Shown: piece after piece, positions 124 to 29,668 of the stretch
Numbering within the stretch: position 1 is the first letter of the stretch
Layout: every line of letters begins with the position of its first letter
Virus record (IMG/VR): IMGVR_UViG_3300010167_000005
Coordinates: 1-40,050 of that record
DNA: 40,050 nt
Reading direction: 5' to 3' (one strand)
DNA from: a virus
Notes under the pieces: model-generated
The model's database searches: none
Told to the model about the DNA's origin: nothing
What the model saw: only the letters and a program-made list of their open reading frames with translations
Made by a program: the position numbers and the translations under genes

Positions 124-770
124 CTGAATGTATCTCTAACGCTTTCAGATCACGCGGTCATACTTGCTATACGTTGGATTATGAGGCGAGATTTAAACCG
201 ACGTTTTGCACGGACATAGCAGATTTTGACGTAAATAACCTCTCTCTCTCTCAAGGAGGTATTGACGTGATATGGGCCTCACCTGATTGCACAACTTTTT
301 CTGTTGCGGCGATATCTCACAATTGGGAATATTTGCACGATATACCCTTCCCGAAGCGTTCACAGGCAGTGAAAGGGTTTAGTAACATTCTACACGTTCT
401 GAGGATAATTCAACAGTTGAAGCCTAAATATTGGTTTATAGAAAATCCTATGGGAATGCTACGATCTATGCCGTGGATGAAATCATTGCCGAGAAAAGAG
501 GTCACATATTGTTCTTATGGCGATATAAGAATGAAGCCAACAGATATATGGACTAACTGCTCTCACTGGACGCCGCGTCCTAAATGCCATAATGGCAATA
601 AAGATTGTCATCACGAAAGAGCGCCTCGCGGGTCATCGACCGGCACGCAAGGTTTGAAAAATGCTGAGGAACGATCACGCATACCTCAACAATTATGTGA
701 AGAAATTGTTCTGGCTTGTGAAAATGATGGAGCAAAGGCTATAAGGCAAGTGAACTTATTAAAGTTCTAA
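90..770 (+). CDS. Compact C5-cytosine DNA methyltransferase-like protein (226 aa)
   Basis: ELFSGTE resembles motif I and ASPDCTTFS resembles the Pro-Cys catalytic motif IV. FIENPMG resembles the ENV motif VI and RSRIPQQL resembles motif X. The protein is very short for the family. Confidence 0.6.
   Translation: MILNVLELFSGTECISNAFRSRGHTCYTLDYEARFKPTFCTDIADFDVNNLSLSQGGIDVIWASPDCTTFSVAAISHNWEYLHDIPFPKRSQAVKGFSNILHVLRIIQQLKPKYWFIENPMGMLRSMPWMKSLPRKEVTYCSYGDIRMKPTDIWTNCSHWTPRPKCHNGNKDCHHERAPRGSSTGTQGLKNAEERSRIPQQLCEEIVLACENDGAKAIRQVNLLKF
240..252. repeat. (CT)6 dinucleotide microsatellite inside the methyltransferase-like CDS
   Basis: ctctctctctctc is read directly from the sequence. It encodes LSLS. 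Confidence 0.9.
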
Positions 771-834
771 TAGTAATGTTTATATATTACCGTCCTATAA
801 CTATACATAACAACTATGGGAGTAGTGGTTAGAA
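759..834 (+). promoter_or_regulatory. Promoter-leader cassette copy P1 (TTAAAGTTCTAATAGTAATGTTTATATA + conserved leader)
   Basis: The 28-nt box lies at 759-786, with TTTATATA at 779-786. Positions 769-838 are identical to 3405-3474. The box overlaps the last codons and stop of the upstream gene. Confidence 0.7.
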
Positions 835-996
835 ATGGACATAAAAACACTCAAAGAGGAACTCAACAGATTGCTCAAAGCCGAAACGGTTGCTAGCGGG
901 TCATTTGATGACTATGGCGCGGGTTACGACAACGGCTATGATGCGGGCCGCACTGCTACATTGGAAATGGTTCTAGAAATGCTTGAGGAGGCCTGA
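835..996 (+). CDS. Small hypothetical protein (53 aa), first gene behind P1
   Basis: ATG lies at the same position relative to the cassette as in P2. I translated the ORF manually (MDIKTLKEELNRLLK...LEEA). Its stop abuts the next gene. Confidence 0.55.
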   Translation: MDIKTLKEELNRLLKAETVASGSFDDYGAGYDNGYDAGRTATLEMVLEMLEEA

Positions 997-998
997 AA

Positions 999-1610
999 AT
1001 GACCGCAGAAACCTTGTATGAAATTTCAGAATGGTTTTATTTCAAGACAGACGCGGAACAGCAGTATTGCGGAATCAGAAGAGAGTTTACGTCATCACAG
1101 ATCGTGAAAGAGAGCGAGAAGGCAATGCAAGTTCTCTTCAAGTATGCGATATGGGTTCCTAAATCGCAGGTAACAGTGACCGGCGAGAGAGAAGTTGAAC
1201 ACAGAACCGAAGTGCGCGGAATCGAAGCAGGATTAAGGGGAGGATTCTGTATCTACTCATCTGGGTTGTCATACAGAGATTCATGGGGTCACTGGCAGAA
1301 GGGCACAAGGACAACCTCATACATGGAATTAGATAAAGCGAAGAAGCGCTGTCAGGACTTGCACAACAGAGGACTTTTCTTCCGTGCAATCAGGCGCAAC
1401 GTCAAGACAGGAGAGATACTGATATCTTTTGATTCCTACAAGAAGGACACGGAAGAGTACACAACGGACAAAATGCGCGACTGGACGTTCAAAGAAAGAT
1501 TATGCGAGCGCAGGGAAGTGTCAGACGACGAACAGCGGGAAGACAAAATCGAAGAAACGGTCGACAACGAAAAGGAAGTTCTGTTAGGCGTAATAAGCAG
1601 GAGATGGTAA
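999..1610 (+). CDS. Hypothetical protein (203 aa)
   Basis: Long ORF with a GGAGG Shine-Dalgarno-like site upstream of the ATG. No motif recognised. Confidence 0.65.
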   Translation: MTAETLYEISEWFYFKTDAEQQYCGIRREFTSSQIVKESEKAMQVLFKYAIWVPKSQVTVTGEREVEHRTEVRGIEAGLRGGFCIYSSGLSYRDSWGHWQKGTRTTSYMELDKAKKRCQDLHNRGLFFRAIRRNVKTGEILISFDSYKKDTEEYTTDKMRDWTFKERLCERREVSDDEQREDKIEETVDNEKEVLLGVISRRW

Positions 1611-1612
1611 AG

Positions 1613-1900
1613 ATGGACAAGGTTGAAGAAAGGACATATAACGTGCAAGCAGTGTTCACGCTGTTTCACGGTAAGCAAGTGACCGGTGGAGAGAATGATG
1701 AAAGGATAATAATCGGCGATTATGACGAGCAATGTGAGATAGATGTTGACGTCAAAGTATCGGCTAAAGCAGATCGTGAGGAAGTTATCCTTTATGCTAT
1801 TCGCAGTGAAGGGTATTATGCTGACATTGATGAATGGGATGACAATCTCGAATCAATTGATATAGATATGGACGATGTTATCGTCACGTGGATTGAGTGA
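1613..1900 (+). CDS. Acidic hypothetical protein (95 aa)
   Basis: The in-frame ATG at 1613 follows AGGAG, just after the upstream stop. The Arg-rich N-terminal extension from 1502 overlaps the previous gene and is unlikely to be real. Confidence 0.55.
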   Translation: MDKVEERTYNVQAVFTLFHGKQVTGGENDERIIIGDYDEQCEIDVDVKVSAKADREEVILYAIRSEGYYADIDEWDDNLESIDIDMDDVIVTWIE

Positions 1901-1901
1901 T

Positions 1902-2303
1902 ATGAGCAAATTGACTGAATTGTTGGAAGCACTGCTCGGCGATAAGGACACGGAAGTGCATGTTCGTGTCGTTGGCGCCGAAGTAGGTAGAGGGTATGAT
2001 GAAGGAACTGGCGAGAGATCAATAGTCACGACAGAAGCGTATGAGAACGCCAATATAGAAGAGTTGATGGCAAGGCAGGATATAACTGTTATTCTCAACT
2101 TCTTCAATTGGGCTATGGAAAATCATGGCAGAGATTTAGAGACGCTCGTGAAGATAACTCGCTCAGCAATGAAATGTGACTGCGAGAAATGCAAAACTTT
2201 CGTTAAGTGGAATCAAGAAACGCTTGCCGTAATAATCGGCGAGTACAGAAAGGAGCAAGAGCAAGTTTCAAAGATAAGTAAAGAGGTGAAAGGAAATGAG
2301 TAA
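1902..2303 (+). CDS. Hypothetical protein (133 aa)
   Basis: The ATG at 1902 lies directly after the upstream stop (1898-1900). Confidence 0.55.
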   Translation: MSKLTELLEALLGDKDTEVHVRVVGAEVGRGYDEGTGERSIVTTEAYENANIEELMARQDITVILNFFNWAMENHGRDLETLVKITRSAMKCDCEKCKTFVKWNQETLAVIIGEYRKEQEQVSKISKEVKGNE

Positions 2304-2733
2304 AATAAAGGATTATGCCCCGCACATCATCATGGCAGCGGTATTAATTGTACCGTTGATGTTTTGTGCGTGGATGATTGCACAGCCTGAGACGCCAGAT
2401 AATGGTGAGATAACAAGCGCATCATTTGCGCCGTGGGAATTGAATGAAAACGGAGTAATGGTTGTTCCGATAACAGTAACCGTTGACAATATAGATGTCA
2501 GCCGTGTCAGATCAGTGACGATAATAGCATACGATATCGGCAACAATGCCATCGGAACAGCAACGGCGAAGAGAACAGTTATTGTTGGCGGAGCGATATC
2601 ATGCCCGTTCTCGGCGGTAGCAGCATCGTTTGACGAATGGACATTCAGCGGAGCAACGTATCCTGCTATGCCCGATAAAATAACTGTTGAGATATTGATG
2701 CTTGCTGGTAATGTCATCAGTGCAACGACGTGA
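2296..2733 (+). CDS. Membrane-anchored or secreted hypothetical protein (145 aa)
   Basis: GAGGTGA Shine-Dalgarno site. N-terminal hydrophobic helix APHIIMAAVLIVPLMFCAWMIA. Confidence 0.6.
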   Translation: MSKIKDYAPHIIMAAVLIVPLMFCAWMIAQPETPDNGEITSASFAPWELNENGVMVVPITVTVDNIDVSRVRSVTIIAYDIGNNAIGTATAKRTVIVGGAISCPFSAVAASFDEWTFSGATYPAMPDKITVEILMLAGNVISATT

Positions 2734-2999
2734 TATTCATGGCTGAGAAAAGTAAAAGTAACATAGTTGCAGGATTGATATTCCTGTCACTGATCGTCGG
2801 AGCAGTTGGCGGGTTTGTGCTGGCAACAGAATGGCATGAGTGTGATGACTGCTCCCTTGACCATTACGAATGCGATAAGGAACACGCTATCTTATATAAC
2901 TGTACCTTTTGCAAAGATAACCGTGAGATCGTTGGCGTAGGGTATGACGCTGATGGGAGCATAAAGATGATATCCTTACCATGTCCGGAGTGTGGATGA
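2730..2999 (+). CDS. Small membrane protein with Cys-rich (zinc-ribbon-like) ectodomain
   Basis: Transmembrane segment IVAGLIFLSLIVGAVGGFVLA. Cys pairs CDDC, CxxC (CTFC) and CPEC. Start is GTG 2730 or ATG 2739. Confidence 0.55.
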   Translation: MIFMAEKSKSNIVAGLIFLSLIVGAVGGFVLATEWHECDDCSLDHYECDKEHAILYNCTFCKDNREIVGVGYDADGSIKMISLPCPECG

Positions 3000-3409
3000 T
3001 GTTAGGCTGTTTATCCGTCAAACCCTTTTACGCTTCAAAAATCTATCAAGGGTTGAAGACGATAGAGTTTAGGACAAAAGTGTTACCTGAAGGAGATTAC
3101 TTCATCTACTCCTCTGCACCAGATAAATCGGTCAACTGCATGTGCCATATCAATCTGATAGCAGGCGGAGAGGTCAACTTCGTCGATGATTGGCACGATA
3201 GCATATTCCGAAGTGGATGTATATCTCCTGCCGATCTTAAACAGTATCAAGGTAGCAAAAAAAGCATCTTTGCTCACAGGATTTCAAATGTGGTTAAGAT
3301 TAAGCCAGCGTTGAGTATTTACGATCTTATGCTTAATCGTCCGCCTCAATCATGGTGCTATGTCAACTTATCGCAGGTTGAAGTAGACGAATTGTTAAAG
3401 TTGGAATAG
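2981..3409 (+). CDS. ASCH / PUA-like domain protein
   Basis: LSVKPFYASKIYQGLKTIEFR matches the N-terminal ASCH signature (siKqPwa..I..G.KtiEiR). The true start is probably ATG 2996 or 2999. Confidence 0.55.
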   Translation: MSGVWMMLGCLSVKPFYASKIYQGLKTIEFRTKVLPEGDYFIYSSAPDKSVNCMCHINLIAGGEVNFVDDWHDSIFRSGCISPADLKQYQGSKKSIFAHRISNVVKIKPALSIYDLMLNRPPQSWCYVNLSQVEVDELLKLE

Positions 3410-3470
3410 TAATGTTTATATATTACCGTCCTATAACTATACATAACAACTATGGGAGTAGTGGTTAGAA
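3395..3470 (+). promoter_or_regulatory. Promoter-leader cassette copy P2
   Basis: TTAAAGTTGGAATAGTAATGTTTATATA lies at 3395-3422, with TTTATATA at 3415-3422. A 70-bp stretch is identical to P1. The box overlaps the LLKLE-stop of the ASCH gene. Confidence 0.7.
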
Positions 3471-3725
3471 ATGGTGACAAACAAAGCGGAAAAAGTGGTA
3501 GAAAAATATTTGGAAGATTGCGACGCGGCGACGTGGTTTGTGATTACCGAGAACGATAAAGTTATCGGAAAGACGTGGTCAAATGCTTTGGCATTTAGAG
3601 TTGTTGACAACCTGAAAGAAGTGAGGACTATTCTCCTCATGAAGGCTAAAATGAAAATATTTGAGTGCAGATACCTTCACAGCACAAATGAATGGGTGAT
3701 AAGTGAGGTGGCTTTAGATGCCTGA
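3471..3725 (+). CDS. Hypothetical protein (84 aa), first gene behind P2
   Basis: ORF with the ATG exactly 56 nt from the TATA start, as in P1. Confidence 0.6.
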   Translation: MVTNKAEKVVEKYLEDCDAATWFVITENDKVIGKTWSNALAFRVVDNLKEVRTILLMKAKMKIFECRYLHSTNEWVISEVALDA

Positions 3726-4044
3726 GCAGAAGATCAACCAGGTAACCGGAACGAGAACAAAGTTCCGCTACACCGGCTCCTATGCCGCTCAGAGCGGTCA
3801 CGGAACCCAGCGGTTCTATGAGAACAAAAAGGACAAAAGCAGCACGTATGAACGCGCGGTTAAATTGACTGCGACACGCAGGACAATTACGGGTATTCAG
3901 CAGGAGATAATCTGTATTCGTGAATCAGAATGCAAGAGTATGGCATCTTATAACATCACTGTTAAGAACACGATTGATGACCTTAGAAGACAAGGTTACG
4001 CCGCCGACAGAATCACGGAATCGCATTACATGGAGTGGTTGTGA
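3718..4044 (+). CDS. Hypothetical basic protein (108 aa)
   Basis: GAGGTGG Shine-Dalgarno site 6 nt upstream of the ATG. Overlaps the upstream stop. Confidence 0.6.
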   Translation: MPEQKINQVTGTRTKFRYTGSYAAQSGHGTQRFYENKKDKSSTYERAVKLTATRRTITGIQQEIICIRESECKSMASYNITVKNTIDDLRRQGYAADRITESHYMEWL

Positions 4045-4301
4045 TGGGTAAGACACAAGAGTGGATAAGACAGGTCACAATAGGAGCAGTGACGACGATA
4101 AAATACTTCGGCGATGACTGTAACAAGTGTTGGGAAGATGCACAGACGTATTGGGAAAATCTGACGGCAAAGGAAAAGGAACATACTGTCGTTGAATCAT
4201 GCCTGGCGGATATAACGATCAGTGATAAGGGTGTGAGGATAATCGGCGATATGTGGCAGGTTACGACACATAACGATGTGACAGGCGTAAGAGGGTGGTA
4301 A
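4044..4301 (+). CDS. Hypothetical protein (85 aa)
   Basis: The ATG at 4044 overlaps the upstream stop (TGATG) and is preceded by GGAGTGG. The ORF track start at 4035 is a GTG. Confidence 0.55.
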   Translation: MGKTQEWIRQVTIGAVTTIKYFGDDCNKCWEDAQTYWENLTAKEKEHTVVESCLADITISDKGVRIIGDMWQVTTHNDVTGVRGW

Positions 4302-4558
4302 ACGTGGACGGAAGGGTTAGACAGATACACGATTTGAGCGATTATGTCGCTATCGGTAAAGAGTTCATGGAAATGCAAGACGATTTAAGGGAAGCAAGAG
4401 ATAGCATAATATCAGCAGAAAACGTCCTTGCTATATACTGCGAGACGATCAACTCAAAGGTGCAGACAAGCATAGCAGAGAAGTTGATGGCAGCGTTATT
4501 TGCCTTAAAAGATGCAAAGGACAACCTTAGCAGTTTTTTGGGTGATGACGATGAGTGA
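4295..4558 (+). CDS. Hypothetical protein (about 85 aa)
   Basis: ORF with a GTG start at 4295 or 4304, the latter spaced 5 nt after GAGGGTGG. Confidence 0.5.
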   Translation: MVNVDGRVRQIHDLSDYVAIGKEFMEMQDDLREARDSIISAENVLAIYCETINSKVQTSIAEKLMAALFALKDAKDNLSSFLGDDDE

Positions 4559-4575
4559 AGTTGAAGAGATAATGC

Positions 4576-4812
4576 TTGAAGGCGATTGCGGAGATTGTGA
4601 CCATGATGTCTTCGAATGCCTACTTGAGGAAAGATGCTTCTATTGTTCAAAGGAGAGTGAAGGATGTGTCTGCAGCAGGCTGTGAACATTTGAACGTATT
4701 TATGAAATGGCAGAGGGATATCAAACGCTGGAAATGCGTTATGTGTGGCAAGGTGTTTACACCTGAGGAAACGGAGCAGTATATCATTGAAAGGAGCAGG
4801 CGATTAAAATGA
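4576..4812 (+). CDS. Small hypothetical protein with C-terminal CxxC
   Basis: ORF-track model. An alternative two-gene model exists: a Cys-rich 44-aa ORF at 4551-4685 plus a GTG-started short ORF ending at 4812. Confidence 0.4.
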   Translation: MKAIAEIVTMMSSNAYLRKDASIVQRRVKDVSAAGCEHLNVFMKWQRDIKRWKCVMCGKVFTPEETEQYIIERSRRLK

Positions 4813-5555
4813 TAGGCAATCCCTTTGCTTGCTACCCTTATGACTGGACGTATAACGTTCCGTTCCTGGAAGTGTTTAGCGACGGTGTTAGCACATACGT
4901 CTACATAGATGATAAACCGTGCTACTTCCCTTCAGATATGTCAATAGAGGACATAGAAGGGTATGCAAGATTCTTCTACAATATCGAGCAGGATGTTCGT
5001 TCTCCTCACAGATATTTAACCTCTAACTTCGACGTGTCTGAGGATGATGTCGTCGTTGATTGCGGAGCAGCGGAAGGATTTTTTGCCTTGAGTGTTGCAG
5101 ATCGTGTTAAAAAAGTGTACGTTTTTGAACCCGATGTGAGATGGCTTGAGGCTTTGAGGAAAACTTTCGCACCGTATGACAATGTGGAGATAGTGACGAA
5201 ATATGTTTCAGATCATACCGATAAATATACTTTATCGCTGGATGATTTCTTCTACAAAAAAGATAAACCGACGTTTATCAAGATGGATATAGAAGGCGAG
5301 GAAGAAAGAGCACTCATCGGAGCAAGCGTTTTGCTGGAGACAAGTGTTAAGAAACTTGTTACCGCTTGTTATCATAGAGCGAACGATCTTTACCGGTTGA
5401 GTAAATATGCACAGAGAGCAGGATTTTTAACCTCGACGTCTGAAGGGTTTATTCTGACCAATTTTGACAACTGTGAACCGTATGCGAGGCGATGCTTACT
5501 TCGTGGAGAAAAATTACCCGCAGAAGATCGGCAAAAGTATAGGCCTTTTGTGTAG
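4809..5555 (+). CDS. FkbM-family SAM-dependent methyltransferase
   Basis: VVVDCGAAEGFFALSVADRVKKVYVFEPD is a Rossmann SAM-binding motif, followed by IKMDIEGEE. Both are typical of the FkbM family. Confidence 0.7.
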   Translation: MIGNPFACYPYDWTYNVPFLEVFSDGVSTYVYIDDKPCYFPSDMSIEDIEGYARFFYNIEQDVRSPHRYLTSNFDVSEDDVVVDCGAAEGFFALSVADRVKKVYVFEPDVRWLEALRKTFAPYDNVEIVTKYVSDHTDKYTLSLDDFFYKKDKPTFIKMDIEGEEERALIGASVLLETSVKKLVTACYHRANDLYRLSKYAQRAGFLTSTSEGFILTNFDNCEPYARRCLLRGEKLPAEDRQKYRPFV

Positions 5556-5573
5556 CGCAGGGAGTGAAATGAT

Positions 5574-6269
5574 ATGCCAATTGATAAGATCGTCATAACA
5601 CTCGATCAGGACGAGTTTGTACCCGTTATTACGGGTAAATACCCGTTCGTCTTTCTCAGACGTGTGCCATACGATATGTTGCAAGGAGAGAAGTATGTCG
5701 TTGATATCGCCACACCGATTAAGGGCGGAGGGAGTGGGATGATTGACGGTTTTTTCCAAACTCACGATATAATACACTTAAGGAGTACTGATGAGATACA
5801 CTTGCTCTTTAACGAGCACTGGACAGATTATCATAGAGGGTATAATCATCTTAAATACGATATATCGTTGAGAGACCAGGAGCGCATACAGCGCTGGAAA
5901 GGTGCCTACGCTTTGCCAGTACATTACCCATATCACTCTATCAATATGGATGGCAGTATACAACCTGGCTTGAGTGATTTAAGCACATACGGCATAAAAT
6001 CGTTACCTATTAGAGGGATGTACGCATACGTAGAGGAGTTATCTTCCAACGGACAGAGATTAACTCCTGGCAGAATCAGAAGAGGGCCAAATTGTCCGTA
6101 TTGTATGGGTAGCGGGCAGGGTAGGAGAGATAACGATAACGATAAAGATAAACTGCCGATCAAATGCAACGTATGCGATGGCAGAGGCAGGGTTACAGAT
6201 AAGGCGAAGAGATATATCAAGTGGCTGGAGAGTGAGGCAAAAGATCAAAAAGATATACTTAAGTATTGA
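5574..6269 (+). CDS. Hypothetical protein with C-terminal DnaJ-type CxxCxGxG zinc finger
   Basis: CPYCMGSGQG ... CNVCDGRGRV, separated by a DNDNDKDK low-complexity linker. Confidence 0.6.
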   Translation: MPIDKIVITLDQDEFVPVITGKYPFVFLRRVPYDMLQGEKYVVDIATPIKGGGSGMIDGFFQTHDIIHLRSTDEIHLLFNEHWTDYHRGYNHLKYDISLRDQERIQRWKGAYALPVHYPYHSINMDGSIQPGLSDLSTYGIKSLPIRGMYAYVEELSSNGQRLTPGRIRRGPNCPYCMGSGQGRRDNDNDKDKLPIKCNVCDGRGRVTDKAKRYIKWLESEAKDQKDILKY

Positions 6270-6652
6270 TGAGAGGAAAGATGGCATAGGCATCCCTTTC
6301 TGCCAAAAACATCCCATAGTTGGCAAAGTGTTTTATCCATCCCTCAAATCATCATCCTCCGTTAAACCCTTTCCAAACTTTTTACTTTTAACACTACTTA
6401 AAAAGCCAAATCTCCAGTCGTAATGATGGTTTTTGCAGATCGTGAAAAACCGATAAGTTTTTAAAGGGTACGGTTTTCATTTTTCTACTCGTTTTACTAC
6501 TCTCCGGACTTCATATTTAAACGCTTGTAGTAAAATCAGTAGTAAAAAGAGTGAAGAATGAATAAAGTGCTAATAGTGGCGACCTACATTACGACTGCAA
6601 CCTTCGTGAAAATGTATGCTAGCGTACACTTTTCGATAGGTTTTGTATACAC

Positions 6653-6718
6653 GAGTAGTAAAATGAAAACCATTTTTCACTCCGTTCTTCTACTCGTTTT
6701 ACTACAAACAATTGTTAA
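6653..6718 (+). repeat. Long repeat element, copy A
   Basis: 6671-6718 is identical (48/48) to 26682-26729. 6653-6705 matches the reverse complement of 26527-26579 at 50 of 53 positions. Confidence 0.9.
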
Positions 6719-6787
6719 TAGTATATAATACCATATCTAAACATTGTTAAGTTTTTTCAAAGGTGTATATATATGTTTTGTAAGGGG

Positions 6788-6795
6788 TTTATATA
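6788..6795 (+). promoter_or_regulatory. Candidate TATA box (TTTATATA) for the late/morphogenesis operon
   Basis: Exact TTTATATA about 160 nt upstream of the small terminase ORF. A box copy at 6810-6820 would sit at the predicted transcription start. Confidence 0.35.
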
Positions 6796-6951
6796 GGACG
6801 TAGGAAAACGAGTAGTAAAATAGGCCCTGTCAAACTGCTAACAAAAATGAATTTTATAAAGTAATATTGAACGGTTTCATTTTACTACTCTAAGAAAATA
6901 GCAAATAGCAAAAATAGTAAAAAATGATTGTAAACACGGTTAAGGGATAAG

Positions 6952-7596
6952 ATGATCGTTTTATGGGTGAAAATGGACGAAAGATACAATAGTTTTATAT
7001 TTCTATATTTTTATATCTGTTTTGTGACACCCGCAGTTAAAGGAGCAGATCGTCCATATCGTCCGGTGAATTTAAACAAATTGTGGCGTGAGCCAAAAAG
7101 ACTGGAGTTATTAACCCACTGGGCCAGAATGGGTCACAGCATAAAGAAGATATCTGAGATGATAGGTATCGACCCTGCAACGCTTTATGCCTGGATTAAA
7201 CTTTATCCGGAAGTGAAAGAGGCGTTGGAACAAGGTTGTGAAAGTGCAGATGAAGCAGTTGAAAGCGCTTTATGGAAAAGAGCAAAGGGATACAGTTATG
7301 ACGAAGTGAGTGTGCAATATGATGCTGATGGTAAAATCATTGATAGACGGGTTGTGACAAAGGAACTGCCTCCGGAACCGTCACTGGCTAAATATTGGCA
7401 AACGGTTAGAAAGAAGGGAGATTGGAACGAACGAATTATACTCGACGCTAACGTTAACATGGACATGCAGGTTAATGAATATAGTATAATACAAACATCA
7501 TCTGAAGTATTAAAGATTTTAAAGGCGAAAGGACTGGATGTGAAAGATATTGTCGAAGTGCTTGCCGATATTGAAACAGGAACTGAATCTAACTGA
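6952..7596 (+). CDS. terS: Terminase small subunit (HTH)
   Basis: SIKKISEMIGIDPATLYAWIKLYPEVKEALEQG is an HTH typical of small terminases, and the gene lies directly upstream of terL. The first 30 or so codons look non-coding, so the start is uncertain. Confidence 0.7.
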   Translation: MIVLWVKMDERYNSFIFLYFYICFVTPAVKGADRPYRPVNLNKLWREPKRLELLTHWARMGHSIKKISEMIGIDPATLYAWIKLYPEVKEALEQGCESADEAVESALWKRAKGYSYDEVSVQYDADGKIIDRRVVTKELPPEPSLAKYWQTVRKKGDWNERIILDANVNMDMQVNEYSIIQTSSEVLKILKAKGLDVKDIVEVLADIETGTESN

Positions 7597-9109
7597 TCGT
7601 GAAACGGACGTGCTTGTCTGGGCCTTAAGGCAAGGGACGGCATTTACAACCTTCTACCGATACTTCAAGGAAACGATATTGTCAACACCAGATTGGATGG
7701 AAGCGCCTCATCATAAACAGTTATGTGACATATTACAGCAGGTTGCTGATGGCAAGATAAAAAAACTGATGGTATTCGCTCCTCCCAGGACTGGTAAGAC
7801 GATAATGGTTAGCCAGGCGTTTAGTTCCTGGTTCCTCAGTAGAAATCCTCAGAAGGAAGTGGTTATCGCATGCTACAATCAATCGTATGGAGCGCAGAAC
7901 GCCAACGGAACAAGGATGCAAATGGAACACCCGTTCCATGTCAAACTGTTCCCTGGCTTGTCTGGAGAGGAAGCGATGCGATATAGTAGGTCAGACGCAT
8001 GGGCATTCAGATGTAAAAGAGGGAAAGACCCTAATCTTCGTGGTGTTGGCATAGGAAGTGCGCTAACAGGAAGTGGAGCAAACCTTCTAATCATAGATGA
8101 TTATATCAAGGACCCGGAAGCAGCTCGTTCGGCAACGATAAGAGAAAATACATGGTTGTGGTATACTCAAGTGGCTAAGACAAGGTTGGACCCATTGGAC
8201 AATGCACAGATCATCATCGCCACGCCATGGCATCCTGACGATTTAGCGCACAGAATACTTAAACACGAGGGTGAGATAGGACAGGAGATGGAAGATGGTA
8301 GAGATGGTCAATGGTTGGTTATAAGGATTAGAGCGACAGACGAAGCAGGTCATTCGTTTTGGCCTCAACGGTTTAGCGATGATTTCTTCCAAGAAATGTT
8401 AAACGTCATGGGTCCTAACGTCTACTCCGCACTGTATCTATGCCGTCCAGTATCTGATTTAGGCAGGATATTTGACCCTGAATGGTGGAAGTATTATGAT
8501 GTTAATACACTTAAGGAAGATATTTTAACTCAATCAACTCATATTTACGCCAGTTGGGATACGGCAATGAAGGAGAAGGAACATAACGATTATACCGCCT
8601 GCTCCGTGTGGCTATCACTACCTAACGGTCATCATCTATTGGATACGTTTTATGAACGCGTACGTTTTACAGAGTTAAAGAAAGCGGTGTTGGATATGCA
8701 CAATAAATGGGGAGTTATGTACCATTTGATAGAGGATAAATCAAGCGGAACATCACTAATACAGGAGTTGCAAGATCAAACCACGCTAAACATCATACCC
8801 ATTAATCCAAAGGGACCAAAGTACGAAAGGATTAAGAACGCGTCCATTTATGTCCGTGGCGGGAATGTTTATCTTCCGGCGGAGTTCAGTCTGTACCAGG
8901 GCGGGTTGACTAAGACGCCAACGAGAAAAAGTAAGCAATTAATGGAAATGATGTCACTCTGGCCCATGGTTGACCATGACGATATGCAAGATTGTATCGC
9001 TCAATACCTTAACTATATAAATGACGGTGTTAATACAGTTAAGTATGCTGATATCGCCGATCTTATCCCTAACTTCACTGGCAATACCAACGGAACAGGG
9101 GTGTTCTGA
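7550..9109 (+). CDS. terL: Terminase large subunit
   Basis: Walker A-like FAPPRTGKT and Walker B LLIIDD. RNaseH-like nuclease motifs WDTAMKEKEHNDYTA, IEDKSSG and HDDMQD. The start is non-ATG (TTG 7550 or later). Confidence 0.9.
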   Translation: MSKCLPILKQELNLTDRETDVLVWALRQGTAFTTFYRYFKETILSTPDWMEAPHHKQLCDILQQVADGKIKKLMVFAPPRTGKTIMVSQAFSSWFLSRNPQKEVVIACYNQSYGAQNANGTRMQMEHPFHVKLFPGLSGEEAMRYSRSDAWAFRCKRGKDPNLRGVGIGSALTGSGANLLIIDDYIKDPEAARSATIRENTWLWYTQVAKTRLDPLDNAQIIIATPWHPDDLAHRILKHEGEIGQEMEDGRDGQWLVIRIRATDEAGHSFWPQRFSDDFFQEMLNVMGPNVYSALYLCRPVSDLGRIFDPEWWKYYDVNTLKEDILTQSTHIYASWDTAMKEKEHNDYTACSVWLSLPNGHHLLDTFYERVRFTELKKAVLDMHNKWGVMYHLIEDKSSGTSLIQELQDQTTLNIIPINPKGPKYERIKNASIYVRGGNVYLPAEFSLYQGGLTKTPTRKSKQLMEMMSLWPMVDHDDMQDCIAQYLNYINDGVNTVKYADIADLIPNFTGNTNGTGVF

Positions 9110-11226
9110 TGTCTGGTAAGGAAGTTGGCGAGGAGATAATCACAGAGTTATTTAACCCTCGTCCGGACATTACGATCAAGCACATTTTGGCATCACGCTC
9201 AAATTATCTGGTTGAGAGTAACTTAACTCAACTGTTATCCATAGTCTTTCCATCGGATATGACTTATGATGTGTTTAACGCTGATGGCACAAAAAATGAG
9301 GCTGCTACACAAATTTTAACCAATATGGCTAAAAAACCATCGACTAACTTATGGTACTTCATGCAACAGACATATGACGATATCTTCACGTATGGAGCGT
9401 TGGTAGCAAATAAGTTCTACCAGCAAGATGAGGGTGTGTGGGTGTTGCACTTGAGGCGATTACCGCCTGAAACATTCAGCGAAACGCCGAGTGAGGTTAA
9501 AGGTACATCGTCCATCTTTATGCCCGGACTTATCTCAACATCGAAAGGTATACGTGCTTTCCAAACTTCGACCGATGATACCGGCAATACTCACACGGTT
9601 GAAATCCCAGAAGACAGTTTGCTAATCTTCACAGACCCCAGATATGCAAGTAAGGTAGGGGGCGAGAGTAAACTCAAGTCCATCGTTCCCTTGTTACAAA
9701 ACCTAAACGACGGGTACGTTATGTTTAAACGTGCATCGAGGCGTGCTGGAGACCCGAAGGTTATGGTCAAACGCCCGGCGGATGTGGCTAAAAAGTTAAC
9801 ACCTGAGGAAAGGAACGATCTTAAAAAGTTCTTATCTGACCAAACTGAGAACGGTGCAGTACTGTTACCCGATGGAATGGACGCTCAAGGGGTTCCTATA
9901 AACGCTAACAATATGTGCGAACGGTACTTGACTGTATGTATCCAGCAGATAAAGGACTTCTTTAACCCTACGAGTTGGTTATCAAGTACAGGTACGGCGT
10001 TATCGGAAAGTGGTAAAGCACGGTTGGAGTTAATAAAATTAGCCGTAGCAGGACAGCAGTCTATGGTGGAAGACCATATCGAAGGTGTGTTGAATGAGTG
10101 GCTGGAGATAAATGGTTGGACTGGCTGTACCGTGACAATAACGATCAATAACGCTAACGTGTCAAATGAAGCAGCGCAGGCAAAAATCGTAGAAACGTTG
10201 AGGAAGGAGAAGTTATGTTTTATCAACGAAGGGAGACAGATAATGGGCTTGCCTGCACTTGATGAAGAACAACTTAAGTTATTAGAAGAGGAATATGGCT
10301 CATCAAACGACACATTAGCATCACTACTCACATTCGGCCCTGAAGGGAGACGGCTTCATTCCAACCATGCTGGCATTTCCTCCTTCGTTAATGTAGGCGA
10401 GGAGCACGAACCTAACAGAGCCGAAGCCATTCTTACTAAAGAGTTGGTCAACGTCGGTCAGGAAGTGACAGATAGTATAGTGTCAACGCTAACGGACACG
10501 GGTGTTGACAGGCAGCGGATAGATACAAGTATCGGCATGATGGAGAGAAGGACGGTTGTTAGTCTATCTCAAAATGCTGGCAGGCAATATGCCATCGGAA
10601 GTACTGAAGCGTATACTCGCATGCAAATGGTTCCTGATGGGTTATCTATCATGCAGAGAACGCAGGCATTTACGGAAGATTACGTCAATTTAGCGATAAA
10701 AGAGGGCGTGACGATCATCGACGGCGAGAAGAATAATTGGATATCTCGCTTCCAGGAAGAGCAAAGGGTAGATATATACGATATCATAACGAAAGGGATG
10801 GAAGAAGGCAAGTACCCTGGAGTAAAAGAAGGTGTTAGAGGCGGGTATGCGCAAAACACGATAGGTTACGATCTGCAAGAGTACTTTAATGATAGAAGGT
10901 CACACACCACAACCGTAGCAAGGACGGAGAGTGGTAGAATAATGAATATGGGACACCTTGAGACGTATGCTGAGATGGGTGTTACCCGTGTCCGCGTGCT
11001 CGATGGTGACGGAGCAAACTCGTGCGACGTGTGCAACATGATAAACGGTCAGGAATGGCCGGTAGATTATGCTATGGACCATACCCTTGAGCATCCTAAT
11101 TGCGTTAGGGATTTTATACCGATAAAGCCGAGAGGCGGGTATGCTGTTAACAATATCCCAGTTAAATTATTTAAGGAGAGACAGTTATTACTTAAAATGC
11201 CGTATCAATTTGTGGTGGGAAGATGA
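9109..11226 (+). CDS. Portal protein fused to a Mu F / SPP1 gp7-like head-morphogenesis domain (705 aa)
   Basis: Positioned directly after terL. The C-terminal RTESGRIMNMGH...CDVCNMINGQEW...EHPNCVRDF matches the Phage_Mu_F signature. Confidence 0.8.
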   Translation: MSGKEVGEEIITELFNPRPDITIKHILASRSNYLVESNLTQLLSIVFPSDMTYDVFNADGTKNEAATQILTNMAKKPSTNLWYFMQQTYDDIFTYGALVANKFYQQDEGVWVLHLRRLPPETFSETPSEVKGTSSIFMPGLISTSKGIRAFQTSTDDTGNTHTVEIPEDSLLIFTDPRYASKVGGESKLKSIVPLLQNLNDGYVMFKRASRRAGDPKVMVKRPADVAKKLTPEERNDLKKFLSDQTENGAVLLPDGMDAQGVPINANNMCERYLTVCIQQIKDFFNPTSWLSSTGTALSESGKARLELIKLAVAGQQSMVEDHIEGVLNEWLEINGWTGCTVTITINNANVSNEAAQAKIVETLRKEKLCFINEGRQIMGLPALDEEQLKLLEEEYGSSNDTLASLLTFGPEGRRLHSNHAGISSFVNVGEEHEPNRAEAILTKELVNVGQEVTDSIVSTLTDTGVDRQRIDTSIGMMERRTVVSLSQNAGRQYAIGSTEAYTRMQMVPDGLSIMQRTQAFTEDYVNLAIKEGVTIIDGEKNNWISRFQEEQRVDIYDIITKGMEEGKYPGVKEGVRGGYAQNTIGYDLQEYFNDRRSHTTTVARTESGRIMNMGHLETYAEMGVTRVRVLDGDGANSCDVCNMINGQEWPVDYAMDHTLEHPNCVRDFIPIKPRGGYAVNNIPVKLFKERQLLLKMPYQFVVGR

Positions 11227-12236
11227 CAGAGAAAAAAGCAAAGACGTTTATCAATCTGATATCGGATGAGAAGGTTACATCTCACGACGCTGTCTTACAT
11301 CGCTTAAACACGCAATATCGATATGGCGATATGTATCTCATGATGAATTCTGATGCTTTTGAAAAGAGTATCGGCGAGTGGCTTAACGCTAAGTTAATAT
11401 TCGGGATAGGACACCCGGATATGGACACGGCCTATTTTGCTCCAGGGCTTGCCGCAGCCGTGGACGGGAGTGTTGAGGTAGGTAAGATCACTAACGCATG
11501 GATTAACCCTGCTGATAACAAACTCATGGCAAACTTCGAGTTTAGCGGCGATTACACTGCAGAGATTGAAAATCTCATCAAGGAAGGCAAACTCTCCTTG
11601 TCTTCCGGCTTCCACTCCATAGATAGTATCGACGAAGAAACAGGCATGGTACGATTTGAAGAGGTCGTACCCAATCACGTATTACTCTTCGTTGAGAATG
11701 AATGGAACAGACCACGCGACCCAGCGAGTGGTATTGTTAATATCCTGGGAGGTACGAATATGGCGACATTGGAAGAAATGGCTAAAACAAATGCCGAATC
11801 CAAAGTCAAGATCGACGAAATGACTGCCAAAGTCAGTACATTGGAAGCGGAAAAGGCAAAGATCAATTCTGAGCTCACCGCAAAGACGAATGACCTTGCG
11901 GCAGCCGAAGAGAAGATCAGGTCTTTGGAAGCGGATAACGAAAAGTTCAAGACCGATGCGCTGGAGATAGAGTGGAACGGGATAGTATCTACTCTGCCTG
12001 CGGCGATAGCGAAGGACGCAACAAAACTGGAAGAGGCTAAAAAGGAATTTATGGCTGACCCGCTTGCGTTCTACAGAAAACAGGCTGTGGCGGCAAAGAC
12101 GTCACTCCAGGAGATGGCTGCAAAGACCTCGAAAGCAGGTTCGACAGACAACTCCGCCGGAACAGAAGAAGGGACAGTATCGTATAAGGGTAAAACTTAT
12201 ACTGAAAGTGAGTTCCTCAAGATCATAGGTGGTTAA
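11223..12236 (+). CDS. Prohead protease (HK97/S78-like) with C-terminal coiled-coil scaffold region
   Basis: GIGHPD ... LSLSSGFHS ... VPNHVLLFVEN follows the HK97 protease pattern. This is followed by Ala/Glu/Lys-rich coiled coil (TLEAEKAKINSEL...). Confidence 0.6.
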   Translation: MTEKKAKTFINLISDEKVTSHDAVLHRLNTQYRYGDMYLMMNSDAFEKSIGEWLNAKLIFGIGHPDMDTAYFAPGLAAAVDGSVEVGKITNAWINPADNKLMANFEFSGDYTAEIENLIKEGKLSLSSGFHSIDSIDEETGMVRFEEVVPNHVLLFVENEWNRPRDPASGIVNILGGTNMATLEEMAKTNAESKVKIDEMTAKVSTLEAEKAKINSELTAKTNDLAAAEEKIRSLEADNEKFKTDALEIEWNGIVSTLPAAIAKDATKLEEAKKEFMADPLAFYRKQAVAAKTSLQEMAAKTSKAGSTDNSAGTEEGTVSYKGKTYTESEFLKIIGG

Positions 12237-12237
12237 A

Positions 12238-12627
12238 ATGACACTCGATAGAACAGGTGTGCCGGGAGAGGTGAAGTTTGACGGGTTGTATTACGCGTTG
12301 AAGTTTCCCTTAATGGCAAACATCACAGCAGGGCAGGTATGCATCGTTGCCGATACGGGAGGGTTGATGGTGGCTTCGGCGGCGTCGACAGGTAAACCGG
12401 TAGTTCCGCTACAGCACGGTGCATCAGGCGAGGAAGTAACAGGGATGTTGGAAGGCGTTGTCCTGCTCAAGTCCACGGCAGTTGCAAAGAAAGGAACGAA
12501 GTGCATATTCGGTGCGGCTGGTGCAGTATCTCCGAAAGCAGGTACGCCTACATTCGATCAGTTTGTTGGATACTACGCTGAGGACTGTACTGATATCACA
12601 ATACCTGTAGCAGTGAGGGTGGTCTGA
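12238..12627 (+). CDS. DUF2190-like small head protein (decoration/cement candidate)
   Basis: Gly/Ala-rich 129-aa ORF between the scaffold and major capsid genes. The ATG at 12238 follows AGGTGG. Confidence 0.5.
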   Translation: MTLDRTGVPGEVKFDGLYYALKFPLMANITAGQVCIVADTGGLMVASAASTGKPVVPLQHGASGEEVTGMLEGVVLLKSTAVAKKGTKCIFGAAGAVSPKAGTPTFDQFVGYYAEDCTDITIPVAVRVV

Positions 12628-13502
12628 TGACTCAGCCAGGTCAGGGTGGCGCAGGTGCCACGCAGGTAATCAGCCTTCCGCCGTTCACAAGAGCGCAGAT
12701 GTTGCAGATAAGGGCAGATATGTACGAAGCGATGGCGTTGAACACGTCGTTCGATGTCATATCTGACAAGAACAATATCAATTTCGAGTGGCCTACTCTC
12801 AGCGAGGGTGCGGTTCACACCGACGTTGGCGAGTTTGAAACTGTAAACATCGAGAACGCAAAGTTTGGCTTGCAGTCCTTCAAGATCAAGAAGGACGTCG
12901 GTCATGTGATGGTATCAGACGAGGCAGCGATGATGGGTGCTACAGCATCTCAGAACATCATGGAAAGGCAAAGGGCACAGTTGGGTCCGGCGTTTGCAAA
13001 GGGTGTTGAAAAGAAGATGCTCACGGCGATCAAAAAGATACCTCAACTGTACACCGCGACCGTCAATTGGGCAGTGAGTGCAAACAACCCTCTGCTTGAC
13101 CTCGGAGCGGCATCGCTGATGCTTGAGACAGGCAACACAGATTCAATGAATCTTATCATGAACCCGCTCGACGCAATGAAGTTGATGTCGAACGAGTTCA
13201 TACTCAAGTATGTTGCGAGCGAGATGTTCTCTACGAGAAGGGACAAGTTGGCAGAGTTCAACCTGATAAAGGACAAAAACAACCTCATACCGTCCGGTAA
13301 AGCATATCTTACTTCCACAAAAGGAGTAGGGTATTGGGTCGACGGCAGAGAGTTCCAGGAGCCGTATCGAGACATCCAGAAGGGCGGCGATGGACATAAG
13401 GTGACGTACTTCAACGGTGTATCGGGTCCGTTAGAGCTCGTCGGCAAAGGCGCCACGGCGAAGAACGCTGGTGTTGTTGAGATAACCCTTGTTACAACCT
13501 GA
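12627..13502 (+). CDS. Major capsid protein
   Basis: A 291-aa ORF in the canonical position after the protease/scaffold. Its start is coupled to the upstream stop (TGATG). Confidence 0.75.
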   Translation: MTQPGQGGAGATQVISLPPFTRAQMLQIRADMYEAMALNTSFDVISDKNNINFEWPTLSEGAVHTDVGEFETVNIENAKFGLQSFKIKKDVGHVMVSDEAAMMGATASQNIMERQRAQLGPAFAKGVEKKMLTAIKKIPQLYTATVNWAVSANNPLLDLGAASLMLETGNTDSMNLIMNPLDAMKLMSNEFILKYVASEMFSTRRDKLAEFNLIKDKNNLIPSGKAYLTSTKGVGYWVDGREFQEPYRDIQKGGDGHKVTYFNGVSGPLELVGKGATAKNAGVVEITLVTT

Positions 13503-13511
13503 GGGTAAATC

Positions 13512-13910
13512 ATGGCCGAACTGAACGCGTCGCTATTCGCATCCTTCACAGGGATAGAAGTAAACGACCGTTCCTCAAACTCTTTCACAATTTCTATTTT
13601 CAAATCATTATTTGCCGTAGCGGAAGGCATGCTCAATAAGATGCTATCAGGCACGGCTATTACAGAAGATCTTCACAATTACGCATTAGCGCTGATGATA
13701 GCGCACTTATGGACGATACGAACAACGGATAATACACTTAAGTCCGAGAGTATTGGTACGTATTCCTATTCACGAGATACCGATAAATCAACAAAATACA
13801 TGGCTCAGTTAGAGGAAATGATAGCATCGCTCGGTGCAAGTGATTCTGTGATGTTTGTATCAGTTGAGGACACGAAAGAAGGAGATGTTGACGGATTGTT
13901 AAGGGTGTGA
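13512..13910 (+). CDS. Head-tail connector (gp6-like) protein
   Basis: Size and position immediately after the capsid gene. Confidence 0.55.
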   Translation: MAELNASLFASFTGIEVNDRSSNSFTISIFKSLFAVAEGMLNKMLSGTAITEDLHNYALALMIAHLWTIRTTDNTLKSESIGTYSYSRDTDKSTKYMAQLEEMIASLGASDSVMFVSVEDTKEGDVDGLLRV

Positions 13911-13914
13911 TTTT

Positions 13915-14217
13915 ATGATTTCACACTTTTTAAATCAGAATTGTGTCATCTACAACCGCATAGGGTTTGACGAAGAAGGACGGTCAACCTATGGCGAGGG
14001 ACATTGTGTCGATTGTCGAATAGAGTCTTCGAAGCTCAACGTAACCTCAAGTGATGGCAACGACACAGCGTCCGGTATTCGTATGTATATATCTGCTGAT
14101 ATAAAAATCGGTCCGGACGATAAGATTAAGATCAAAGACCGTACACTCCACGTTAACACTGTTATAGAACAGGTCGATGGGCAGGGAAGGATAACGTACA
14201 AAGAGGTGCACATATGA
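13915..14217 (+). CDS. Head closure / head-tail adaptor protein
   Basis: A 100-aa ORF in the conserved connector gene order. Confidence 0.5.
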   Translation: MISHFLNQNCVIYNRIGFDEEGRSTYGEGHCVDCRIESSKLNVTSSDGNDTASGIRMYISADIKIGPDDKIKIKDRTLHVNTVIEQVDGQGRITYKEVHI

Positions 14218-14552
14218 AGGTCAACATCGAGATAAAAGGGATGGACGATCTATTATCTGCACTTGACGAAAAGAAGGCTATAACAGGTCAAGTTTTCAAT
14301 ATCGTGTCTGATGAGTTGATAGATGCAGTTTTAGTCAAAGGCGGAGTTGACGCACCTGTTAGGACAGGATATTTACGCCGGTCACGGTACGTTTACCCAC
14401 ACATAACAGCCAATAGTTTTACTGTTGAAGCAGGGTTTAGAGCAAGTTATGCTGAAATAGTTGATAGGAGACACGGCACAAAAGCAGGGTTCTTTACCGG
14501 CAACGTGGTCGAGGCGATACATAACATTAAACGGAGAGTTAAGGCGTTATGA
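14214..14552 (+). CDS. HK97 gp10-like tail-completion/neck protein
   Basis: APVRTGYLRRS matches the vPv.TG.Lr.S signature of the HK97 gp10 family. Confidence 0.6.
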   Translation: MKVNIEIKGMDDLLSALDEKKAITGQVFNIVSDELIDAVLVKGGVDAPVRTGYLRRSRYVYPHITANSFTVEAGFRASYAEIVDRRHGTKAGFFTGNVVEAIHNIKRRVKAL

Positions 14553-14935
14553 TAATGGAAAAATCATCTCCGGCAATGTTTGTTCAATCACTGATAAGCA
14601 AGGCAGGCATCACGTCAACGATAGGACAAACGCCGATAGAGAACGATGTTTTTGCCATAATAGATACACCATCGCCAATAGCATCAAACGTCGGTAACGC
14701 AAAATATTTCTCAGTCAAGATCAAAACGGATAAATACCAAGCAGGGTATAAAATGATGAAGGAATTGGAAGAGATGTTATTTCCCGTCCGCAATATAGAA
14801 TCAGTAGACGCCGGAACCTTTGCATCATTTTCAGCAATTCAAGAGCCACGTATCGGAGGGTACGAGGAAGGGGATAAAGGTAAGTATGTAATTATATACC
14901 AGGATTACATTACTTATAACACGAAACCGAGGTAA
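14549..14935 (+). CDS. Tail terminator / tail completion protein
   Basis: Position immediately upstream of the tail tube gene. Size is 128 aa. Confidence 0.5.
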   Translation: MIMEKSSPAMFVQSLISKAGITSTIGQTPIENDVFAIIDTPSPIASNVGNAKYFSVKIKTDKYQAGYKMMKELEEMLFPVRNIESVDAGTFASFSAIQEPRIGGYEEGDKGKYVIIYQDYITYNTKPR

Positions 14936-14940
14936 GAAAT

Positions 14941-15369: not shown

Positions 15370-15372
15370 TAG

Positions 15373-26062: not shown

Positions 26063-26109
26063 ATATTAAAAAACAAAAGAGAAAATATAAAAAGTTTTTT
26101 AAAAAAGGT

Positions 26110-29666: not shown

Positions 29667-29668
29667 GC

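Follow-up and report, generated by a model that had tools for sequence, protein, structure and literature searches.

Among known systems, the element described here is closest to the class I repeats in the intergenic regions of halovirus HF2 (Haloferacalesvirus), which occur in seven copies of 50 to 60 bp and are built of an alpha block, a beta block with the TATA box, and a gamma block at the start site. The activity, start sites, and mutational sensitivity of these repeats have been measured, and their positions are conserved across the genus (Russ, Pfeiffer, Dyall-Smith 2021, PMC8707807). The subject of this study is a promoter-plus-leader cassette that occurs five times in IMG/VR virus record IMGVR_UViG_3300010167_000005. 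Positions 1 to 40,050 of that record were analyzed, and this whole stretch of 40,050 nucleotides (nt) is referred to as the window. The five copies are best explained as one virus-specific class of promoters for TBP, TFB, and RNA polymerase in a tailed virus of a methanogen-like archaeon, a reading to which we assign a probability of about 0.7.

The HF2 repeats and the cassette have several features in common. Each is a multicopy element that is unique to its promoter sites in an archaeal tailed virus (an affiliation that we infer for the window), with upstream, TATA, and start-site blocks separated by variable positions, and in both viruses the copies head long codirectional gene modules. HF2 also has a second repeat class that drives morphogenesis genes and a bidirectional promoter region with direct repeats, both of which are paralleled in the window. 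However, the HF2 motifs (CTTTAAGT and CGTCTNNTAGAG) are found in a GC-rich haloarchaeal setting and have no sequence similarity to the cassette. Furthermore, the HF2 repeats are confined to intergenic sequence, but three cassettes out of five overlap the end of the upstream open reading frame (ORF), and promoter function in HF2 is established by experiment, whereas that of the cassette is predicted from sequence.

In SIRV2 and other viruses of the Sulfolobales, early genes are preceded by a consensus regulatory sequence with a strong B recognition element (BRE) and the TATA sequence TTTAWATA (Bhoobalan-Chitty et al. 2024, PMC11065993). There, as in the window, a near-identical regulatory sequence stands before unrelated, mostly small, unannotated genes, so that a conserved promoter is combined with unconserved genes, and both systems suggest coordinated control through a small viral DNA-binding protein. 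In SIRV2, a rod-shaped crenarchaeal virus, the copies serve single small genes at the ends of the genome, and early expression has been documented by transcriptomics (PMC11065993). In contrast, the cassettes head multigene modules that include replication genes, and they have no clear palindromic operator.

T4-type phages carry PeSL (promoter-early stem-loop) elements, in which a sigma-70 promoter is combined with a stem-loop terminator (Arbiol et al. 2010, PMC2839356). Like PeSLs, the cassettes are short, highly similar regulatory units between variable accessory genes and are potential substrates for recombination; one cassette-headed module is missing from a relative of the virus, contig L120 (IMGVR_UViG_3300010167_000122). 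Unlike PeSLs, the cassette has a promoter of apparently archaeal type and no significant fold or terminator hairpin at any copy. The cassette shares architecture and logic, but no sequence similarity, with the HF2, SIRV2, and PeSL systems, and it is a fresh example of a known viral strategy and not a new mechanism.

A further parallel was found in Methanosarcinales virus vir515 (BK063672.1), in which TTTATATA, the TATA octamer of the cassette, occurs 4 times versus 0.2 times expected. An extended box, AAGGATAAG-TTTATATA-CAATCG, is present there in two copies, at 11674 and 29338, before the capsid and terminase modules. The two methanogen-type tailed viruses thus have the same octamer with virus-specific conserved flanks, repeated before modules. 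However, the flanks in vir515 are different (AAGGATAAG and CAATCG), there are only two copies, the modules concerned are structural, and the GC content is 57%. To our knowledge, the two-copy box of vir515 has not been described in the literature.

Copies, specificity, and anatomy of the cassette

Each cassette begins with a 28-nt box with the layout TTAAAGTT-NN-AATAGTAAT-N-TTTATATA (full pattern, TTAAAGTTNNAATAGTAATNTTTATATA). Four exact matches to the full pattern were found in the window, three on the plus strand (759 to 786, 3395 to 3422, and 37093 to 37120) and one on the minus strand (26484 to 26511), compared to no match in 100 dinucleotide-preserving shuffles (0 expected). The fifth box, at 28794 to 28823, reads CTTAAGTTGGAATAGTAAT-ATA-TTTATATA and differs by one substitution and a linker that is 2 nt longer. 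A sequence-only profile made from the five copies, run on both strands with no filters, retrieved exactly these five, with scores of 40.5 to 75.5 bits, and thus confirmed the four exact copies and one near copy that had been reported in a first-pass annotation of the sequence. The next match scored 12 bits; this site, at 33556 to 33602, is TATA-like, lies more than 100 nt before the next ATG, and was not counted as a sixth copy. The exact core AATAGTAAT is confined to the five boxes in the genome.

In copy 1 (759 to 834, plus strand; 75.5 bits), the box at 759 to 786 ends with the TATA octamer (779 to 786) and is followed by a 24-nt spacer, the motif CAACTATGG at 811 to 819, and an ATG at 835. 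Copy 2 (3395 to 3470, plus strand; 75.5 bits) has its box at 3395 to 3422, TATA at 3415 to 3422, CAACTATGG at 3447 to 3455, and ATG at 3471. As previously noted, these two copies are identical over 70 nt, with 769 to 838 matching 3405 to 3474. Copy 3 (37093 to 37165, plus strand; 64.4 bits) is wholly intergenic and is preceded by T-rich sequence (37064 to 37092), with the box at 37093 to 37120, TATA at 37113 to 37120, CAACTATGG at 37144 to 37152, and ATG at 37166. The divergent copy 4 (28794 to 28856, plus strand; 40.5 bits) consists of the fifth box and a short leader, CAGACAGAGGTTACAAAA, before the ATG at 28857. Copy 5 is located on the minus strand (26440 to 26511; 61.7 bits), where it adjoins a noncoding region designated hub B, and comprises the box at 26511 to 26484, TATA at 26491 to 26484, CAACTATGG at 26460 to 26452, and ATG at 26439.

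Over the five copies, the ATG follows the end of the TATA box at distances of 48, 48, 45, 44, and 33 nt, which replace the range of 41 to 56 nt given originally. In four copies, CAACTATGG begins 23 to 24 nt past the TATA box, and this spacer length is kept even though the spacer sequences of copies 1 and 2, copy 3, and copy 5 differ. The leaders contain a GAGGT or GTGGT Shine-Dalgarno sequence 4 to 7 nt before the ATG, and a Shine-Dalgarno-like sequence is present at all five downstream genes.

Conservation of each block was calculated as the mean pairwise identity among aligned independent copies, with the values for the flank and coding sequence providing the baseline of the aligner for AT-rich sequence. 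Identity was 0.52 in the 30-nt upstream flank, 0.82 to 0.90 in the box upstream of TATA, 0.94 to 1.0 in TATA, 0.58 to 0.65 in the spacer, 0.70 to 0.79 in the start-site motif and leader, and 0.54 to 0.57 in the first 30 nt of coding sequence. The proteins encoded behind the five cassettes (53, 84, 80, 269, and 109 amino acids) have no mutual relationship, and thus the element is conserved in its own right rather than copied along with genes. Selection on the structure of the leader RNA is not supported, because no leader folded better than its shuffled versions and no common fold was detected (z scores, −1.9 to +1.1).

Cassettes mark module boundaries

Gaps of at least 40 nt between genes are found only at the five cassettes, two hubs (A and B), a two-copy T6A6/TATA element, and three sites in the tail and lysis region. 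All five cassettes are located at module boundaries, in the same orientation as the downstream gene. Copy 1 is followed by a unit at 835 to 3409, copy 2 by a unit at 3471 to 6269, copy 4 by the recombination/replication module at 28857 to 37063, and copy 3 by a unit that extends from 37166 over the circular junction to 770. Copy 5 precedes a leftward gene for a protein of 109 amino acids (26439 to 26110, minus strand). The cassettes therefore head every nonstructural module except the unit at 26928 to 28808, which follows hub B; the structural operon (6952 to 25806) follows hub A. This co-oriented placement at module boundaries, together with the block-wise conservation and the unrelated flanks and downstream genes, bears out the original proposal of a dedicated promoter class.

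It had also been proposed that the cassettes split the plus strand into separate units and drive a leftward unit. The cassettes do head modules, but the division is not clean: three copies leave no upstream room for a terminator, and read-through from the preceding unit is therefore to be expected. The leftward gene at 26439 to 26110 does follow a cassette, but a second gene (26062 to 25856) has its own TATA box at leaderless distance, and the leftward unit thus probably consists of two transcripts. A run of seven T's (28766 to 28772) is located near the end of the SNF2 gene, within its final 45 nt and approximately 20 nt before cassette 4; if oligo-T terminates transcription in the host, this run would halt transcripts before the SNF2 stop codon. 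Immediate-early timing, which had been considered probable for the cassette units, is not supported; the box also heads an 8-kb replication module, as would generally be more usual for early or middle genes.

Three upstream ORFs end within the box

In three cases, the preceding ORF has its 3′ end within the cassette, an arrangement attributable to the tight packing of the genome, in which the upstream ORF would simply read on to the stop codons held in the box, always in the frame L-K-x. The ORF at 90 to 770 ends TTA AAG TTC TAA (LKF*), with the TAA at 768 to 770 in the box of copy 1. The ORF at 2981 to 3409 ends TTA AAG TTG GAA TAG (LKLE*), with the TAG at 3407 to 3409 in the box of copy 2, and the SNF2 ORF at 27429 to 28808 ends CTT AAG TTG GAA TAG (LKLE*), with the TAG at 28806 to 28808 in the box of copy 4. 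The box frame is identical in all three. These ends agree with the three shared C termini of the first-pass annotation, apart from the first stop codon, which is TAA and not TAG.

The claim that the box supplies the last codons and the stop gained support from the protein encoded at 2981 to 3409, which can be aligned to its homolog in L120 as far as residue 129. The homolog stops one residue later, whereas the protein in the window continues for 13 further residues to LKLE*, with the last four codons and the stop contributed by the box. The C-terminal tail thus appears to be an add-on, because the homolog ends before it. The label ASCH given to this protein could not be confirmed; no Pfam match was obtained at an E value of ≤0.01, and the only PHROG match was to PHROG 3136 (function unknown). 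In L120, the gene for the homolog directly adjoins the hub and the small terminase gene, and therefore the module at 3471 to 6269, which is absent there, can be considered an insertion/deletion difference between lineages.

Overlap of a promoter with the end of the preceding ORF is ordinary in archaea; in Thermococcus kodakarensis, approximately 90 primary starts of downstream genes have their BRE-TATA inside the preceding ORF (PMC4247193).

A proposed archaeal promoter class and a likely archaeal host

In the proposed mechanism, TBP would bind TTTATATA, which fits the box-A consensus TTTAWATA and is invariant in all five copies, and TFB would contact the A/T-rich AGTAAT(G/A) directly upstream of it, which is also invariant and fits a loose BRE consensus of the RNWAAW type. 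The TTAAAGTT-NN-AAT block may be a class-specific element, where a viral or host regulator would most likely bind and switch the five units on or off together. Transcription is predicted to start approximately 20 to 25 nt after TATA, at or beside the conserved (A/T)CAACTATGG, and would yield an unstructured leader of approximately 12 to 25 nt that includes the Shine-Dalgarno sequence. The structural operon and the hub-B unit would be served by other TATA promoters, which are embedded in iteron arrays.

The position of CAACTATGG fits the normal archaeal start distance. In T. kodakarensis, the TATA box precedes the start by a median of 23 bp (PMC4247193), and in the methanogen Methanolobus the BRE/TATA is 19 to 22 nt from the start site (PMC5378194). 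Starts had been predicted 22 to 27 nt after TTTATATA, and this prediction is consistent with archaeal geometry (PMC4247193) in that CAACTATGG begins there. Like generic archaeal BRE/TATA promoters such as those of T. kodakarensis (PMC4247193), the cassette has TATA approximately 23 bp from the predicted start with the putative BRE further upstream; however, archaeal cellular promoters have a short core consensus only, to which the cassette adds a 28-nt box and a conserved start-site/leader block. The choice between TBP/TFB and sigma-70, which the first-pass annotation had left open, favors TBP/TFB. No RNA polymerase domain was detected in any Pfam or PHROG scan of the genome, and a promoter for a virus-encoded (T7/N4-like) RNA polymerase is thereby excluded.

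It is likely that the host is a methanogen-like archaeon. Affinities were searched among 50,697 phage and archaeal-virus records, in which the portal, scaffold-like protein, and capsid each had Caudoviricetes sp. vir524 (host, Methanomicrobiales) as their sole match, and the head module is collinear with that of vir524. The best match of the tail protein encoded at 17442 to 18926 was vir515 (host, Methanosarcinales; E = 6e-31), followed by a Thermoanaerobacterium phage (5e-6), and the sole match of the protein encoded at 23038 to 24075 was vir335 (host, Methanomassiliicoccales). The octamer TTTATATA is present at 10 sites in the genome, compared to 2.4 ± 1.6 expected (4-fold), and 8 of the 10 are intergenic and face a gene. 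TTTAWATA is similarly abundant in the relative L120 (7 sites versus 0.9 expected). At two genes that lack a Shine-Dalgarno sequence, a TATA box precedes the ATG by 21 nt (26899 to 26906, ATG at 26928) and 23 nt (26093 to 26086, ATG at 26062), respectively, which is the arrangement of archaeal leaderless mRNAs. If the promoter class is confirmed, it will provide an independent, sequence-based pointer to the host domain of an uncultivated virus.

A number of observations weigh against an archaeal promoter class. A related leader had been described at every copy, and this is true of the four copies with CAACTATGG; copy 4 has CAGACAGAGG instead, at a different TATA-to-ATG distance. The BRE assignment depends on the loose RNWAAW-type consensus, and the start sites and promoter activity are predictions from sequence. 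The box was not found in the close relatives L117, L118, and L120, contigs that consist of structural genes only. The host was assigned from structural homologies and sequence signals, and these homologies are distant (25 to 30% identity). No link to a host was obtained from CRISPR spacers, proviruses, or tRNAs, and a search of 185,579 species genomes yielded no relative of the capsid; at the proviral loci L138 and L140, the sequence stayed within the provirus and did not reveal the host. The best matches of the large terminase and the D5 primase-helicase were to bacterial phages, at approximately 30% identity, and no archaea-specific replication protein (PCNA, MCM, or Cdc6) was detected.

Alternative explanations

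It is possible, although unlikely, that the cassette is above all a regulatory module that is mobile or recombinogenic, the equivalent in an archaeal virus of the PeSLs of T4-type phages, and that the promoter is a function it carries. Its identity would then be kept by recombination or gene conversion, and it would mediate the insertion, deletion, and swapping of gene blocks, a scenario that is doubtful to the same degree. The identity of copies 1 and 2 includes the otherwise variable spacer, and the flanks are unrelated; the module behind copy 2 is missing from L120; the 13-residue extension of the protein encoded at 2981 to 3409 reads into the box; and the PeSL precedent is documented (PMC2839356). 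However, the cassette has no stem-loop or terminator half, and the missing module is a single insertion/deletion comparison with a contig that is only 32 to 64% identical, so that many events separate the two genomes. The spacers of copies 3, 4, and 5 have diverged, which argues against ongoing homogenization across all copies. Moreover, this explanation supplements the promoter function rather than replacing it.

A broader version seems unlikely as well. It regards the cassette as a portable, lineage-specific promoter-leader module that recombines between its own copies, as the 70-nt identity of copies 1 and 2 might suggest, captures, deletes, or swaps whole gene blocks in the manner of PeSL-mediated shuffling, and lands on ORF ends, with its upstream half acting as the operator of a viral regulator. 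The box has stop codons in two of three frames, and landing on the 3′ end of any ORF would therefore not prevent translation of that ORF; the common LK(F/L)(E)* tails would be accounted for in this way. If the upstream half is the operator of a viral regulator, each acquired block would also join the same regulon at once.

A bacterial sigma-70-type early promoter is improbable. TTAAAG would serve as the −35 element and TATATA, 16 nt away, as the −10 element, with a start approximately 7 nt after the box and a leader of approximately 40 nt. The hexamers are partly consensus-like (3/6 and 4/6 positions, respectively), Shine-Dalgarno-like sequences are present at all five downstream genes, and many homologs of the large terminase and primase are found in bacterial phages. 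However, a permissive scan called none of the five boxes on its own strand, and sigma-70-like sites are not in overall excess in the genome (43 versus 42.4 and 55 versus 40.6 expected). The TATATA candidate does not have the near-invariant final T of a −10 element, TTAAAG matches at only three positions, compared to the threshold of 4/6 for each hexamer at a spacing of 16 to 18 nt, and sigma-70 recognition does not explain why the whole "spacer" AATAGTAAT is invariant. In addition, the conserved motif 23 to 24 nt past the box has archaeal rather than bacterial geometry, and five structural proteins have their sole or best matches in viruses of methanogens. Hairpin terminators are not in excess in the genome (12 versus 14.5 and 18 versus 14.9 expected) and are absent from module ends, and scans of the genome detected neither a murein (peptidoglycan) hydrolase nor a domain for binding to the cell wall.

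The upstream half might instead be an operator array for a viral DNA-binding protein that functions in repression, partition, or packaging, with the ribbon-helix-helix (RHH)-like protein encoded at 27266 to 27472 or the helix-turn-helix (HTH) protein encoded at 35693 to 35956 as candidates. In favor of this possibility, the 19 nt upstream of TATA are conserved beyond the needs of a BRE, small RHH and HTH candidates are encoded in the genome, and SIRV2 early promoters contain an Aca8 operator (PMC11065993). However, the upstream element always occurs with the invariant TATA octamer at a fixed distance and with a gene start, in one orientation. Its symmetry is poor by inspection (6 of 9 palindromic positions; ATTAAAGTT/AATAGTAAT), and no inverted repeat was reported within the box in the repeat analysis, in contrast to the palindromic winged-HTH or RHH operators of the SIRV2 type. 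The obvious protein-binding arrays in the genome are the separate GAGTAGTAAAA iterons. A function purely as an operator is thus very improbable, and an operator that overlaps the promoter is compatible with the TBP/TFB promoter class.

That the copies are nonfunctional leftovers of recent duplication or a coincidence of AT-rich sequence, as might be imagined from the base composition and from similar strings that arise by chance in unrelated AT-rich contigs, is effectively refuted by the absence of matches in shuffled sequences, the sharp drop in conservation at block edges, the lack of duplication of the flanking genes, and the consistent orientation and distance to gene starts.

Hubs and a second promoter-like element

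Hub A (6270 to 6951) is located upstream of the structural operon, has TTTATATA at 6788 and no cassette, and is presumed to be a late-promoter/control region. Hub B (26512 to 26927) is noncoding and contains GAGTAGTAAAA iterons and TTTATATA boxes at 26764 and 26899. The two hubs are partial duplicates with a 57-nt block in common (6671 to 6727 and 26682 to 26738), and together they contain 11 GAGTAGTAAAA iterons in both orientations, compared to 0.95 expected. They are probably an origin and/or operator arrays for the late operon and for divergent hub-B promoters. The TTTATATA at 26899 to 26906, which is 21 nt before the ATG of a gene without a Shine-Dalgarno sequence, has leaderless geometry, and the hub-B TATA promoters form a class distinct from the cassette.

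In L120, the small terminase gene is preceded by an equivalent hub (960 to 1260), whose iterons are different (CCAGGAAAAA-type repeats). Hub A has at its left edge, on the minus strand (6312 to 6322), an extra exact copy of CAACTATGGGA, an 11-nt sequence that is the same in copies 1 to 3, with no box upstream. A decayed leftward cassette at this site was considered, but alignment to the hub-B side gave no support for it.

A second promoter-like element is present in two copies with the consensus AAAC-N-TTTTTTAAAAAACTTT(T/A)(T/A)ATA, each of which directly follows a stop codon and precedes another gene. One copy is on the minus strand (26083 to 26111), where a T6A6 run is followed by TTTTTATA (26093 to 26086), 23 nt from the ATG at 26062, with no Shine-Dalgarno sequence. 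The other is on the plus strand (30704 to 30732; AAACATTTTTTAAAAAACTTTAAATAATT), between the stop at 30703, which it adjoins, and the gene that starts at 30748. With its T6 run, the element resembles a TATA box to which an oligo-T terminator of the archaeal kind has been joined. Since the hubs use other TATA boxes, the virus appears to have at least three promoter classes, namely, the five-copy cassette, the iteron-hub promoters, and the two-copy T6A6/TATA element.

Transcriptional maps exist for very few viruses of methanogen-like archaea, and here a complete 40-kb genome can be partitioned from its sequence into promoter classes that are testable. If confirmed, the cassette would provide methanogen genetic tools with a strong promoter and its leader in one compact, self-contained part. 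The small unannotated genes at 835 to 996, 3471 to 3725, 37166 to 37408, and 26439 to 26110 would then be candidates for early host-takeover or antidefense functions; the same logic has already been validated in Sulfolobus viruses (PMC11065993).

Genome, relatives, and gene content

Positions 1 to 123 of the window are identical to positions 39928 to 40050. The source contig, assembled with MEGAHIT (k141), is 40,068 bp long, and 40,068 − 141 = 39,927. The terminal repeat and this arithmetic indicate a circularly closed genome of 39,927 bp, that of a tailed virus. No tRNA genes and no paralogs were found in the genome.

No close relative was found in GenBank. Among 5.8 billion proteins, the only two relatives in the lineage were L118 (71% terminase identity) and L117/L120 (61%). 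Searches with the terminase and SNF2 protein in IMG/VR and with a capsid alignment in GTDB genomes found no relatives, the closest match to the primase-helicase had 29% identity, so that these searches yielded no relative of the early region, and PDB sequence searches with three unannotated proteins of the replication module gave nothing useful.

The full box pattern had no matches in IMG/VR, where a 17-base core pattern gave more than 116 single, unrelated matches in AT-rich contigs, which were attributed to chance. The box pattern also matched 14 loci in JGI metagenomes and 1 locus in GTDB genomes (in a Ferruginibacter metagenome-assembled genome), but these were rejected because none of them had protein homology to the window; Rfam and tRNA scans detected nothing at these loci. 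Three JAESGV01 contigs with 28 to 32% GC (L123 at 7649, L125 at 6212 on the minus strand, and L127 at 3817 on the minus strand) have in common a repeat of approximately 300 nt that contains TAAGTTATAATAGTAAT(G/A)TTTATATA. This AT-rich repeat is unrelated to the virus, and its resemblance to the box is coincidental.

The structural operon encodes the small terminase (6952 to 7596), the large terminase (7550 to 9109), a portal-MuF fusion (9109 to 11226; 705 amino acids), a cement-like protein, the capsid (12627 to 13502), the tail tube (14941 to 15369), and a tape-measure-like protein (16168 to 17445). The portal-MuF gene is the largest ORF and combines the portal and a MuF-like head-morphogenesis domain, which are encoded by two genes in vir524 and proviral relatives.

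Among the nonstructural genes are those for the SNF2 helicase (27429 to 28808), a PD-(D/E)XK exonuclease (29669 to 30703), and a D5/P4-type primase-helicase (31719 to 33704), and a SprT-like protein and methyltransferases are also encoded. A Dam-type N6-adenine methyltransferase is spread over two overlapping frames (39555 to 39815 and 39763 to 40020, corresponding to Pfam Dam positions 13 to 72 and 76 to 125), which could be due to a frameshift, a pseudogene, or an assembly error. The gene at 34593 to 35339 encodes a transporter of queuosine precursors (preQ0/preQ1) of the YhhQ/Vut_1 family (TIGR00697; E = 4e-33), with homologs in Haloarcula tailed viruses and Firmicutes phages, and its presence hints at 7-deazaguanine modification of the DNA.

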